Of a DNA stretch of 64,000 nt, positions 41,792-45,051 are shown one piece after another. The position numbers and the translations under genes are program-made. Under the pieces are notes generated by a model. The model made no database searches. It saw only the letters and a program-made list of their open reading frames with translations, and had not been told where the DNA came from. The DNA is taken from positions 256,001 to 320,000 of the forward strand of contig CAWCMR010000008.1 in the NCBI GenBank assembly GCA_963796685.1, given 5' to 3'. The stretch is from an uncultured delta proteobacterium (GTDB lineage: Bacteria > Myxococcota_A > Polyangia > Fen-1088). Position 1 is the stretch's first letter. Each line of letters starts with the position of its first letter.

Positions 41792-43063
41792 ATGAAGCTC
41801 TCCGTCGCATGCAACTTCGACGATGCCCTCTTGAAGGGCCTCGCCGGCTATCCGGTGTACGAGGTTTACGGCAAGCTCACCACGGACTACTTCGGTGGGG
41901 GGCGCCCCGCCTTTTACCTGCCCGAGGTCAATCGCCGGCTGCTGGCGAGCACCGTGAAGACGGCGCACGCGAGCGGCATCCAGTTCAACTACCTGCTCAA
42001 CGCTTCGGCCATGGGCAACACCGAGTACACGCGGACCGGGCAGCGCAAGATGGAGGAGATGCTGGAATGGGTGGATGGCATCGGGGTGGATTCGATCACC
42101 GTGGCCAACGTCTACTTTCTGCGCCTCATCCGGCGGCGCCACCCGCGGCTCAAGCTGCGGGTCAGCTCGCATCGCTTCACGGACAACCCACGCAAGGTGC
42201 GTTTCTGGGTCGATCAGGGCGCGGACGTGATCGTGGTTTCCGAGGTCGGGGTGCACCGCGAATTCGAGACCCTCGCCGCGATGAAGGAGGCCGCGCAGGG
42301 CGTGGACCTGCAACTCATCGTCAACAACTGGTGCCGACAGGATTGTGCCATCGCCGGCAACCACGCCGTCGCGCTGTCGGCGGCCTCGCAGGCGAAGAGC
42401 CGGGGCTTCCCGCTCGACTACTGTTCCATCCTGTGCAACCAGATCCGGCTGCGCGAACCGGTCAACTACGTGCGCGCCAACTGGATCCGGCCCGAGGACC
42501 TGCACTACTACGAGAAGCTCGGCTACGACACCTTCAAGATCGTCGAGCGCAACACGCCCACACAGATCCTGCTCGAACGGGTCAAGGCGTATGCGCAGCG
42601 ACGGTACGACGGCAACCTCCTCGATCTGGTGCAGAACTACGCCTACCCGAAGGACAAGCTCGGCAGCGTAGGCAAAGACGCCAGCTCGCTTCGCCGCATG
42701 GTCAAGTACTTCGTCAAGCCGTTCACCGTGAACCTGTTCCACTTCCGCAAACTGGTCGATTTCGGGCGGGCTGCCAGCATGCTCTACCCACGCGAGGGCG
42801 AGAACCCGGTGGTCGTCGACAACCGCGCGCTTGACGGATTTCTCGCGCGGTTTGCCGAGCGGAACTGCCAGTCGACGGATTGCGAGAGCTGTCGCTACTG
42901 CCACACCTGGGCGGAGCGCGCGGTGAAGATCGATCCGGGCTACAAAGCCAAGCTCGAGCCTCTCTACGGCGATCTCCTGGGCGATATCGACGCGGGTGCC
43001 TTCTGGGAGCCCTACGCGCGGACCGCTGTGCAGGCGCTGCGACGGAGGCAGCCTCCGGGATGA
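41792..43063 (+). CDS. U32-family Fe-S protein (UbiU/UbiV/RlhA/TrhP superfamily)
   Basis: FNYLLN, NNWCRQDC..H..YCSILC, WIRPEDL..Y, FKIVER; extra C-terminal CxxxxCxxCxxC. Confidence 0.85.
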   Translation: MKLSVACNFDDALLKGLAGYPVYEVYGKLTTDYFGGGRPAFYLPEVNRRLLASTVKTAHASGIQFNYLLNASAMGNTEYTRTGQRKMEEMLEWVDGIGVDSITVANVYFLRLIRRRHPRLKLRVSSHRFTDNPRKVRFWVDQGADVIVVSEVGVHREFETLAAMKEAAQGVDLQLIVNNWCRQDCAIAGNHAVALSAASQAKSRGFPLDYCSILCNQIRLREPVNYVRANWIRPEDLHYYEKLGYDTFKIVERNTPTQILLERVKAYAQRRYDGNLLDLVQNYAYPKDKLGSVGKDASSLRRMVKYFVKPFTVNLFHFRKLVDFGRAASMLYPREGENPVVVDNRALDGFLARFAERNCQSTDCESCRYCHTWAERAVKIDPGYKAKLEPLYGDLLGDIDAGAFWEPYARTAVQALRRRQPPG

Positions 43064-45051
43064 GCGAGCCGCAGGCGGCGAGGGACGAACCGACCATCCC
43101 CCCTGGGCTGTGCGAGCGCGCGATCGCGCGTGCGCTGGATTTTCTGGACTCGCGGCAGGAGCCCGACGGAGCGTGGCGCGGCGACTACGGCGGGCCCATG
43201 TTTCTTTTGCCCATGTACCTGGCCGCGCAGCACATCGGTGGTCGGCCGGTCGAGCCGCGCCGTCGGGAGGGCATGCTCACGTACCTGCGGGGGGCCCAGC
43301 ACGCCGACGGCAGCTTCGGCCTGCACGTCGAAGGCTCCGGCTGTCTCTTCACCACGGTGCTGTCCTACGTGGCCCTTCGCCTGCTCGGCCTGCCGGCGGA
43401 CGACGAGCGCGCGACCCGGGCGCGCGGCTTCATCCTCGGGCATGGCACCGCCCTCGCCTGCGCGAGCTGGGGCAAGTTCGTGCTCGCGCTGCTCAACCTC
43501 TACGACTACCAGGGCCTGGCGCCGATCCTGCCCGAGCTGTGGCTCCTGCCCACGAGCTTTCCTCTGCATCCCAGCCGCTTCTGGTGCCACACGCGACAGG
43601 TGTATCTGCCCATGGCGCATCTTTACGGGACGAAGGCGCGGATGCCCCCCGACGATCTGACCCATGCCCTCCGCCGTGAGCTCTACGATCGCCCCTACGA
43701 CAGCATCCGGTTCTCCGACCACGTCGACACCATCGCCGCCAGCGACGTCTACACGCCAGCCACGTGGCCGCTCAAGCTGGTGGGCCGAGCCCTGGGCCTT
43801 TACGAACGGGTGCACCCGGCCGGGTTGCGCAAGCGTGCGCTTGCCCGCTTGGCCGAGCACATCGATTTCGAGGACCGCGCTACGCATTTCATCCGCATCG
43901 GTCCGGTCAACGCCGTCCTCAACACGCTCGTGCATTGCTTCCGTTCCCCGCACAGCGAAGCCACGGAGCGCAGCTTCGCCAAGCTCGAAGGCTACCTCTG
44001 CGACGGGCACGACGGCACCAAGATGAACGGCTACAACTCGACCGCGCTGTGGGACACCGCCTTTGCTACCCAGGCCGTCCTGGCGACCGCACAAGCCGGC
44101 GCTCATCAAGGCACGCTCCGGGGCGCGCACGCGTTCATCGTCGCCAATCAGGTGCTCGAGGATCTGCCCGGCTACCGCCTTTACCATCGCCACCCCAGCC
44201 GCGGGGGCTGGCCGTTCTCCGATCGCGAGCACGGATGGCCCATCACCGACTGCACCGCGGAGGGGCTGAGCGCCTCCCTGCTGCTCGAAACGGCGGGCCT
44301 GCCGGCGCTGGGCTCCGAGCGCGTCCGCGCTGCGGTCGAGCTGATCCTCTCGTGGCAGAACCGCGACGGCGGCTGGGCCACCTACGAAAAGCAGCGAGTC
44401 GGACGCTGGGTCGAGCTCTTCAATCCCGCGCAGGTCTTCGGCGACATCATGGTCGACCACTCCTATCCCGAGTGTACGGCGGCGTGTCTCGCCAGCCTGG
44501 CCTTGTGGCGGCGGCGCCCGGCCGCCGAGAGCGACGACGTCCTCACGCACAAGGTCGCCGTGGCCATGCGCCGGGGCGAGAGCTTTCTGCGCCGCTCCCA
44601 GCGCGACGACGGCAGCTGGGAAGGCTCGTGGGGGGTCTGCTTCACTTACGGGACCTGGTTCGGCGTGCGCGGCCTATGCGCCGTCGGCGCCGCCAGCGAC
44701 GACCCGGCGCTGGCGCGGGCCTGCGCCTTTCTCTACGCCCGCCAGAACAGCGACGGCGGTTGGGGCGAAAGCGGCACGAGCTGCGCCGAGCGACGCTACG
44801 TGAGCGCGCCCAGCCACGCCGTCAACACCGCCTGGGCGCTGCTGGCGCTGACCAGCGCCGGTCAGGCCCACGATCCGCGCTGTGCCCGGGCGGCGCACTT
44901 TCTTCTCACCAGCCAGCGCGACGACGGCGACTGGCCGCGCCAGACCCTCTCGGGCGTGTTCAACAAGACCGCGCTCATCAACTACGAAAACTACCGCCGC
45001 TACTTCCCGCTGTGGGCCCTGGCGCGTTTCACGGCCGAGAGCCGCCTCTAG
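43060..45051 (+). CDS. osc: 2,3-oxidosqualene cyclase, cycloartenol-synthase type
   Basis: DCTAE catalytic motif (not the SHC DxDD), YGGPMFLLP, FWCH, QW repeats, WGVCFTYG; GYN/HGWPI signature. Confidence 0.95.
   Translation: MSEPQAARDEPTIPPGLCERAIARALDFLDSRQEPDGAWRGDYGGPMFLLPMYLAAQHIGGRPVEPRRREGMLTYLRGAQHADGSFGLHVEGSGCLFTTVLSYVALRLLGLPADDERATRARGFILGHGTALACASWGKFVLALLNLYDYQGLAPILPELWLLPTSFPLHPSRFWCHTRQVYLPMAHLYGTKARMPPDDLTHALRRELYDRPYDSIRFSDHVDTIAASDVYTPATWPLKLVGRALGLYERVHPAGLRKRALARLAEHIDFEDRATHFIRIGPVNAVLNTLVHCFRSPHSEATERSFAKLEGYLCDGHDGTKMNGYNSTALWDTAFATQAVLATAQAGAHQGTLRGAHAFIVANQVLEDLPGYRLYHRHPSRGGWPFSDREHGWPITDCTAEGLSASLLLETAGLPALGSERVRAAVELILSWQNRDGGWATYEKQRVGRWVELFNPAQVFGDIMVDHSYPECTAACLASLALWRRRPAAESDDVLTHKVAVAMRRGESFLRRSQRDDGSWEGSWGVCFTYGTWFGVRGLCAVGAASDDPALARACAFLYARQNSDGGWGESGTSCAERRYVSAPSHAVNTAWALLALTSAGQAHDPRCARAAHFLLTSQRDDGDWPRQTLSGVFNKTALINYENYRRYFPLWALARFTAESRL

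Follow-up and report, generated by a model that had tools for sequence, protein, structure and literature searches.

Squalene epoxidation is commonly treated as the reason why sterol synthesis needs O2 (PMC12324236, PMC8237579, PMC8364164), and the first two of these papers state that O2 is required to form oxidosqualene. Whether some bacteria might reach oxidosqualene by another route is the question raised by a 64,000-nucleotide (nt) stretch of DNA from an uncultured delta proteobacterium (GenBank assembly GCA_963796685.1, contig CAWCMR010000008.1, positions 256,001 to 320,000; hereafter the window), in which a gene for a U32-family protein overlaps the start of a gene for an oxidosqualene cyclase (OSC). 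The window has a GC content of ~0.65 and belongs to a metagenome-assembled genome (MAG) of 7.3 Mb in 26 contigs, with an estimated completeness of 88.6%. We propose a function for the U32 protein as a squalene 2,3-oxygenase that depends on prephenate, dispenses with O2 and supplies the OSC with its substrate. We consider this assignment rather likely, because the gene is coupled to OSC, occupies an operon position between squalene synthesis and cyclization, has chorismate mutase encoded beside its orthologs and is distributed in a manner complementary to squalene epoxidase. The wider proposition, namely that bacteria of at least three phyla make protosterols without O2, with the U32 protein epoxidizing squalene with prephenate oxygen and the coupled OSC cyclizing the product, is in our judgment about evenly balanced. 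Such a sterol role would be new for a known enzyme family.

The U32 gene overlaps an oxidosqualene cyclase gene

Genes of the window were called with a GC3-guided procedure and scanned against Pfam. The U32-family open reading frame (ORF) spans 41792-43063 (+) and encodes a 423-aa protein, P0001, whose sole Pfam match is Peptidase_U32 (PF01136; 39.4 bits against a cut-off of 22.4, E 5.3e-10). An AlphaFold model of the protein (pLDDT 83, pTM 0.85) has the U32 barrel fold, its top Foldseek match being Mk0906 of Methanopyrus kandleri (5D88; E 9e-9, target-normalized TM 0.69), which was also recovered by a profile search (E 8.2e-7). Mk0906, the closest solved structure, is a 254-residue protein of unknown function that comprises the barrel core only and is 18% identical to P0001. 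The earlier note on this locus had described a U32-family gene with two four-cysteine groups, and this description agrees with the Pfam match, the fold and the cysteines, which are arranged as C181-x3-C185 with C211-x3-C215 and as C359-x4-C364-x2-C367-x2-C370. Membership of the squalene monooxygenase family requires an FAD-binding and an SE (PF08491) domain, both of which are absent from P0001; the protein may act like an epoxidase, yet it falls outside that family. It likewise scored far below the cut-offs of the equivalog models for UbiU (NF047963; 15.7 bits, cut-off 440) and TrhP (NF011996; 21.4 bits, cut-off 534). The Fe-S binding, prephenate use, substrate and product that we ascribe to this protein are predictions from its sequence and genomic context.

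The downstream gene, located at 43060-45051 (+), encodes a 663-aa OSC. The 4-nt ATGA overlap with a DCTAE-type cyclase gene reported in the earlier note is indeed present: within GGGATGAGC at 43057-43065, the OSC ATG begins at 43060 and the U32 TGA occupies 43061-43063. A GGAGG ribosome-binding site for OSC lies inside the 3' end of the U32 gene (43044-43048, +), 11 nt upstream of the OSC ATG. The cyclase carries the catalytic motif HGWPITDCTAEG and has the single catalytic Asp of PITDCTAEG, not the DxDD of squalene-hopene cyclases. Of the NCBIfam families, it scores highest on TIGR03463 (2,3-oxidosqualene cyclase), where its 757 bits fall short of the curated cut-off of 851, and it reaches 605.6 bits on the general family TIGR01787 (cut-off 322.7). 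We take its catalytic Asp to be the equivalent of human D455. The enzyme appears to be of the cycloartenol type, because the His six residues and the Ile two residues before this Asp match H449/I453, described in part of PMC4919349 as the cycloartenol-synthase signature.

U32 orthologs recur in isoprenoid and cyclase gene clusters

A scan of GTDB species genomes yielded 104 confirmed U32 loci, and the counts given here cover 80 of them. Neighborhoods were compared by all-against-all clustering of ORFs followed by Pfam and NCBIfam scans of the cluster representatives, and genes were counted per locus with tblastn, since the GC3-filtered ORF calling misses some of them. An OSC gene was found in 43/80 loci. 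In 32 it is on the same strand as U32 and starts at most 400 nt downstream, in 8 further loci it follows behind one GGR-family gene and in L044 it is 516 nt away, which places OSC directly or near-directly downstream of U32 in 41/80 loci from the Myxococcota, Spirochaetota and Fibrobacterota. The adjacency highlighted by the earlier note consequently extends well beyond the window genome. When only loci with 3.2 kb or more of sequence beyond U32 are counted, which leaves out 24 of the 80, OSC lies within 1.6 kb of U32 in 32 of 44 (L001-L064) and in 0 of 12 (L065-L080). The motif DCT[A/S/G]E is found in 36 of the 39 cyclase ORFs of the loci and SDTTAE in two Fibrobacterota ORFs; TIGR03463 was the best-scoring family for all 15 cyclases sampled. 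The only DTDDTAE ORF among the 39 is the second cyclase of the Spirochaetota locus L061, where a DCTAE-type OSC follows U32 and this cyclase of the squalene-hopene type lies 5 kb off in the same isoprenoid cluster (2114-4000 (-) and 10260-12242 (+) for the two cyclases).

A homolog of bifunctional chorismate mutase/3-deoxy-D-arabino-heptulosonate 7-phosphate synthase (CM/DAHPS) is located within 400 nt of U32 in 45/80 loci, which fits the prephenate-dependent chemistry described for U32 proteins in part of PMC10990095. Its representative scores 506 bits on NF009239 (cut-off 279); the gene lies upstream of U32 with both domains in 40 loci, and L071 has a chorismate mutase domain alone. A further link to the aromatic pathway is seen in L041, where genes for prephenate dehydrogenase and ThyX (8007-9899) are directly upstream of U32. 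The typical order in the Myxococcota is HpnE, HpnD and HpnC on one strand, then farnesyl diphosphate (FPP) synthase, CM/DAHPS, U32, sometimes a GGR flavoprotein, and OSC, the whole flanked by mevalonate (MVA) genes (HMGS, HMGR, PMK, MDD and type-2 IDI). In the Spirochaetota, the order is U32, OSC, DXS, FPP synthase, IDI2, DUF116, DXR and IspE-IspH. The remaining genes of these clusters (FPP synthase, HpnC/D/E, type-2 IDI and those of the MVA or methylerythritol phosphate (MEP) pathway) are predicted to make the substrate. The earlier note had named RNA modification and quinone synthesis as contexts in which close homologs might instead reside, and no gene of either kind was found among the conserved U32 neighbors of the 80 loci; the homologs are surrounded by genes of the MVA/MEP pathways and those for FPP synthase, HpnCDE and OSC. 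We also considered sterol methyltransferase as a general partner of U32 and rejected it, as it adjoins U32 in only 1/80 loci. This locus, L068 (4231-12601), from a Chitinophagaceae MAG, encodes an AraC regulator, squalene synthase, squalene monooxygenase, FPP synthase, U32 and a Sterol_MT_C protein, with OSC divergent.

U32 and squalene epoxidase have complementary distributions

Co-occurrence at the genome level was examined in 50 of the genomes that contain the 80 loci, chosen for longer contigs and so that all phyla were included. An OSC of >600 bits is encoded in 48/50 of these U32-holding genomes, the gene being split in G012. The SE domain was found in 12/50 and not found in 38/50, genomes without squalene epoxidase being those to which the earlier note had drawn attention for a search of the adjacency; most close relatives have U32 only, without an epoxidase to pair with it. 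Cytochrome P450 was found in 6/50 and not found in 44/50, and COX1 was not found in 16/50. The FA_hydroxylase domain, whose superfamily includes both the alternative squalene epoxidase AltSQE and ERG25, was found in 25/50, a count that includes seven Spirochaetota genomes with a single copy each, located on contigs other than that of the cluster. In 22/50 genomes (G010, G013-G029, G033, G038, G039 and G048), U32 and OSC occur without SE, FA_hydroxylase or P450. One of these, G026, is a single closed 5.18-Mb chromosome with a cluster (L040) of HpnCDE, FPP synthase, CM/DAHPS, U32 and OSC; searches of this chromosome found no SE, FA_hydroxylase, P450 or COX1 and no full-length FAD_binding_3 protein (best match 27 bits). 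The anaerobic ribonucleotide reductase NrdD is present in two Spirochaetota genomes. In the Spirochaetota genome G036, NrdD is encoded ~3.5 kb from the U32-OSC cluster (C25:235107-242113).

We also analyzed a sample that was not chosen by U32, consisting of 301 Myxococcota genomes (272 of high quality) in which a U32 ortholog was defined by at least 54% identity. It should be noted that three of its genomes (G062, G074 and G110) share contig coordinates with G026, G023 and G014, and the two genome sets thus overlap. OSC was present in 34 of the 301, SE in 28 and the U32 ortholog in 15. The ortholog occurs in 12/34 genomes with OSC versus 3/267 without it, the latter three being from one family; these counts are given without a P value, as related genomes are not independent. 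It is found in 5 of the 8 genomes that have OSC and no SE, and these five span four families. Each of the other three has its own particulars: the cyclase of G241 is 33% identical to that of the window and is without DCTAE, the contig of G274 ends just after HpnE, short of the U32 site expected from synteny with L030, and the OSC of G153 is cut by a contig end. All five assessable Myxococcota genomes with OSC and without SE therefore hold U32. A scan of 201 Spirochaetota genomes gave two with OSC, too few for statistics, of which G030 has U32 and G369 has SE beside OSC and no U32. Overall, the distributions of U32 and squalene epoxidase are complementary.

Relatives and phylogeny of the U32 protein

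A word-indexed search identified 1779 relatives of P0001 among 8000 scored candidates. The best 120 of the 1779 show identities of at least 67% and lengths of 382-475 aa, and their only names are 'collagenase-like PrtC' and 'U32 family peptidase'; a protein atlas search likewise returned only clusters named 'U32 family peptidase' or 'hypothetical protein'. Among 1.84 billion representatives of 50%-identity clusters, 414 relatives were found at E <1e-30; most have lengths of ~390-400 aa and identities of 31-45%, an indication that the paralogous family is a wider one. Some genomes contain several paralogs of 33-43% identity (5 matches in G329 and 3 in G312; also G129 and G281), a few of them in tandem (G329 C468:450-2773), as part of a larger uncharacterized U32-like family.

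The mean column identity over 31 orthologs (from the Myxococcota, Spirochaetota, Fibrobacterota, Bacteroidota and MAGs labeled Pseudomonadota) is 61%, suggestive of strong constraint on the protein. Seven cysteines, C181, C185, C215, C359, C364, C367 and C370, are invariant in the 31, with C211 and C7 retained in at least 90% of them. A quick maximum-likelihood tree of the same 31 rows, an analysis recommended in the earlier note, divides them into clades A and B with 100% SH-aLRT support. Clade A comprises 23 rows including the window, 19 of which are OSC-adjacent, and clade B comprises 8 rows from Archangiaceae, Bacteroidota and Competibacteraceae with longer C-terminal tails; loci outside the tree were assigned to A or B by identity rank, not by tree placement. 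In an informal comparison, an OSC tree shows broadly the groupings seen for U32, and it places the Spirochaetota pair within the Myxococcota. The U32-OSC module, nested as it is within Myxococcota diversity, could be older than the flavin epoxidase route or independent of it.

A proposed route to oxidosqualene and its relation to known enzymes

As described in parts of PMC6747719 and PMC10990095, the characterized U32 proteins (UbiU/UbiV, TrhP and RlhA) take part in O2-independent hydroxylations with prephenate as the donor, and their Fe-S clusters are thought to be electron carriers. In the mechanism proposed there, the substrate loses two electrons and the resulting cation is quenched by hydroxide from prephenate. 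P0001 would similarly catalyze the two-electron oxidation of an sp2 carbon, with the electrons leaving via Fe-S clusters held by the two four-cysteine groups of its single polypeptide, which may replace the two clusters of the UbiU-UbiV heterodimer. Oxygen from the C4 hydroxyl of prephenate would be delivered to the terminal C2=C3 double bond of squalene, yielding 2,3-oxidosqualene or an equivalent 3-oxygenated species. Squalene oxidized in this manner would become a 3-hydroxy C2 cation, equivalent to protonated oxidosqualene with its ring opened, and epoxide formation would therefore be chemically reasonable. The translationally coupled DCTAE cyclase, of the cycloartenol type in the window, would then cyclize the oxygenated product. 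Prephenate would be supplied by chorismate mutase, in most relatives by the CM/DAHPS fusion encoded beside U32, and in the clade of the window a sigma-54 promoter would drive the operon under the control of a divergent GAF/PAS enhancer-binding protein.

Several known systems offer points of comparison. UbiU/UbiV share with P0001 the U32 family, four-cysteine motifs and, on the present proposal, a role in a polyprenyl lipid pathway; they use prephenate as the oxygen donor, and chorismate mutase is encoded beside the orthologs of P0001. They also parallel the flavin monooxygenases UbiI/H/F in an O2-free manner, just as the window U32 would parallel squalene monooxygenase. However, UbiU/UbiV form a heterodimer with one cluster each, whereas P0001 is a single chain with two cysteine groups of other spacing; the former act on an aromatic ring, whereas the proposed substrate of P0001 is an isolated alkene to be epoxidized; and we observed no UbiT-like SCP2 partner in the conserved neighborhood of P0001 orthologs. 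TrhP (YegQ) and RlhA are U32 proteins as well and take part in the oxygenation of a C=C carbon that depends on prephenate and not on O2. They act on C5 of tRNA and rRNA pyrimidines, whereas the context of P0001 is without RNA-related genes, and they differ from P0001 in its C-terminal domain with the C-x4-C-x2-C-x2-C group. TrhP is reportedly paired with an O2-dependent alternative, TrhO.

The reaction proposed for P0001, squalene to 2,3-oxidosqualene for use by OSC, is the one catalyzed by squalene monooxygenase (SQMO/Erg1), an FAD enzyme of unrelated fold and cofactor that requires O2. SQMO often adjoins OSC in bacteria, as in G369, and its distribution is complementary to that of U32. A precedent for non-homologous squalene epoxidation in lineages that have OSC and lack SQMO is AltSQE, an alternative squalene epoxidase of diatoms and other eukaryotes; it is a di-iron membrane oxygenase of the fatty-acid-hydroxylase superfamily and it needs O2. 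Its superfamily domain, FA_hydroxylase, was not found in 25/50 U32 genomes. The earlier note knew of no described example of such paired aerobic and anaerobic routes, and our own literature search, with supplementary tables outside its reach, found nothing that connects U32 proteins to squalene, oxidosqualene or sterols. Three uncharacterized genes reported in PMC8237579 to accompany sterol methyltransferase might include a clade-B U32.

Evidence against the proposal and alternative explanations

A number of observations weigh against the proposed squalene oxygenase. At the level of the protein, the PF01136 alignment is confined to residues 86-152 of P0001 (profile positions 3-69 of 233), and the conserved C181, C185, C211 and C215 are spaced C-x3-C-x25-C-x3-C, unlike CX6CX15CX3/4C, which is given in part of PMC6747719 as the recurrent U32 four-cysteine motif for [4Fe-4S]. 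According to part of PMC10990095, the known U32 substrates are aromatic or heteroaromatic rings and not an isolated alkene, direct hydroxylase activity is undemonstrated for RlhA and TrhP, and in vitro assays of U32 proteins are awaited. The window cluster is without a chorismate mutase neighbor, the only CM_2 match of the genome being ~520 kb from the window. With respect to gene content, most of the 50 genomes are MAGs, in which absences mean 'not found', and two of the 50 lack a clear OSC, as G041 has weak cyclase matches only and G050 has none. The latter belongs with G082, G247 and G317 to one lineage that retains a U32 ortholog of 63-65% identity and has no squalene or oxidosqualene cyclase, and the U32 neighborhood of this lineage is uninformative. 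In the Myxococcota sample, U32 co-occurs with SE in 7 of the 26 genomes that have both OSC and SE, and clade-B U32 is unlinked to OSC and co-occurs with SE. A GGR-family flavoprotein is found beside U32 in 16/80 loci. Cytochrome bd oxidase was present in 5/5 COX1-less genomes checked; therefore, O2 can be met by these organisms, which need not be strict anaerobes. Lastly, P450/CYP51 is also missing from most of the U32 genomes, and complementarity alone therefore fails to single out the epoxidation step.

Two observations touch upon these subjects. In the cyclase-free lineage, the gene immediately upstream of U32 encodes a B12-binding radical-SAM protein (L058:8533-9999; also L029 and L071). 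The only CM_2 match of the window genome, that ~520 kb from the window, shares one 681-aa open frame (G000 C8:816330-818315, -) with the DAHP synthase match, with ~330 unidentified residues between them.

Alternatively, U32 could act after cyclization, as an O2-independent tailoring hydroxylase or oxidase of the protosterol, for example in the first step of methyl removal or in ring or side-chain hydroxylation. The U32-OSC gene order fits either direction of substrate flow, the 44/50 genomes in which P450/CYP51 was not found could make the complementarity a matter of demethylation, UbiU/UbiV carry out several hydroxylations (as stated in part of PMC6747719), and clade-B U32 co-occurs with intact SE and adjoins sterol methyltransferase in L068. 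We nevertheless regard this explanation as unlikely: it would leave 22/50 genomes, one of them a closed chromosome, with a DCTAE-type OSC and no known source of oxidosqualene, epoxide-type cyclases are said in part of PMC12324236 not to accept squalene, and the Myxococcota order of FPP synthase, CM/DAHPS, U32 and OSC puts U32 before the cyclase. An indirect link to OSC, with U32 hydroxylating a different lipid or metabolite in a prephenate-dependent manner and being co-regulated with isoprenoid genes, would accommodate the four genomes that keep the ortholog without a triterpene cyclase, the CM/DAHPS-U32 pair in the OSC-free loci L046, L059, L066, L073 and L079 and the distance of U32 from OSC in SE-containing genomes (~600 kb in G044). 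It is harder to reconcile with OSC being encoded in 48/50 U32 genomes versus 34/301 in the phylum sample, with coupling or near-adjacency to OSC in 41/80 loci of three phyla and with the lack of quinone and RNA-modification genes among the conserved neighbors, and we consider it decidedly unlikely.

It is also conceivable that the real epoxidase is the GGR-family flavoprotein or an unrecognized O2-dependent oxygenase working at trace O2, with U32 as an accessory or redox protein. The GGR-like gene encodes an FAD protein (TIGR02032, 192.8 bits, cut-off 158.8) that also scores on FAD_binding_3 and adjoins U32 in the 16 loci mentioned, and the cytochrome bd oxidases imply that O2 is encountered. 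However, this gene is missing from 64/80 loci, including the window and all Spirochaetota loci, it was unmatched by a squalene monooxygenase query (only L001 and L068 were matched, through their own SQMO genes, E 1e-8), a GGR homolog of Myxococcota is reported in part of bioRxiv 10.1101/2024.11.01.621555 to be a sterol C-24 reductase and the closed genome G026 is without a full-length FAD_binding_3 protein. Accordingly, we view a role of either protein as the epoxidase as improbable. As for the peptidase function implied by its database names ('collagenase-like PrtC family protease' and 'U32 family peptidase'), which are all that speaks for an activity unconnected to lipid synthesis, we give it almost no credence: the characterized U32 members are Fe-S hydroxylation factors according to parts of PMC6747719 and PMC10990095, eight cysteines are conserved (seven invariant, one in at least 90%) and the gene is conserved within isoprenoid/OSC operons beside chorismate mutase. 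An O2-independent squalene 2,3-oxygenase is the assignment that we retain.

Regulation of the operon and other genes of the window

The earlier note had credited the U32-OSC pair with a promoter of its own, separate from that of an O2-dependent squalene epoxidase gene 5 kb away. The pair does form a transcription unit separate from the epoxidase, but no sigma-70-like promoter was found within 41400-45400 and the promoter is instead of the sigma-54 type. A -24/-12 element, TGGTGCGGACCTTGCA, is located at 41762-41777 (+), 15 nt before the U32 ATG, and elements of this type have 2 matches in the 64-kb window versus 0.45 expected. The pattern TGGTKC-N5-TTGCA is present 30 to 58 nt upstream of U32 in 13/15 close relatives; the element is absent from 13 more distant loci tested, in which other genes precede U32 in its operon. 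Divergent from U32-OSC is a gene for a bacterial enhancer-binding protein with PAS, HisKA, receiver, sigma-54-interaction AAA+ and HTH_8 domains (38250-40733, -), homologs of which occur upstream of U32 in 33/80 loci. It is accompanied by a GAF-domain ORF (40657-41544, -) that is probably the N-terminal sensor part of the activator: L001 holds GAF and activator as a single 1086-aa ORF, and an uncompensated 1-nt insertion near 40779 relative to L001 parts the two ORFs in the window, where they overlap in different frames (40657-40733). A GAF homolog was found in 32/80 loci. Because the -24/-12 element is conserved and the enhancer-binding protein and GAF module recur, the U32-OSC operon is probably sigma-54-dependent and signal-controlled. 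A terminator scan gave 8 hairpin-like matches, every one within coding sequence. A search for sequencing runs gave 12, none of them recorded as RNA (best word share 0.10).

The epoxidase gene itself, a squalene monooxygenase with FAD_binding_3 and SE domains, lies where the earlier note had placed it, at 48457-49813 (+), but it is split over two frames: compared with the intact ortholog of L001, a 1-nt insertion near 48968 separates the FAD part from the SE part. It contains the only SE match in its genome and could be either a pseudogene or an assembly error; the insertion at 40779 is a second uncompensated one. The proposal of the earlier note that aerobic and anaerobic routes are paired here is thus sustained as far as U32 is a candidate for the anaerobic route, while the pairing is uncertain for the window genome because its epoxidase is frameshifted. 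Squalene synthase (SQS_PSY by Pfam) is encoded at 49859-51004 (-).

Convergent to OSC is a trio of Pfam-assigned genes at 45223-48017 (-) that is kept after OSC in close relatives. It encodes a DUF35/ChsH2-type OB-fold protein (45223-45684, -), a partner of thiolase and HMG-CoA synthase; an acetoacetyl-CoA-forming thiolase for the start of the mevalonate route (45697-46854, -); and an HMG-CoA synthase-like condensing enzyme (46893-48017, -). The trio presumably resembles the archaeal-type thiolase/HMGS/DUF35 complex. On the other side of the operon, a gene for a DUF3419 protein adjoins the activator and is conserved in the close clade, and a phosphatidylserine decarboxylase gene lies beside it in both the window (37038-37904 (-) and 36262-36987 (+) for the two genes) and L001, adding further membrane-lipid genes next to the sterol cluster.

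Implications

Should the proposed function be correct, an anaerobic bypass would exist for the step with which sterol synthesis becomes 'obligately aerobic'. Sterane and protosteroid biomarkers would be weakened as oxygen proxies, since they would not by themselves be proof of O2, and the dating of sterol synthesis against the Great Oxidation Event would need to be rethought. The production of sterols would be predicted for uncultured Myxococcota, Spirochaetota and Fibrobacterota of peat, groundwater and sediments, and a route for making triterpenoids in anaerobic hosts would become available. For the U32 family, it would mean that prephenate-dependent chemistry reaches from aromatic rings to the epoxidation of an alkene in a neutral lipid.

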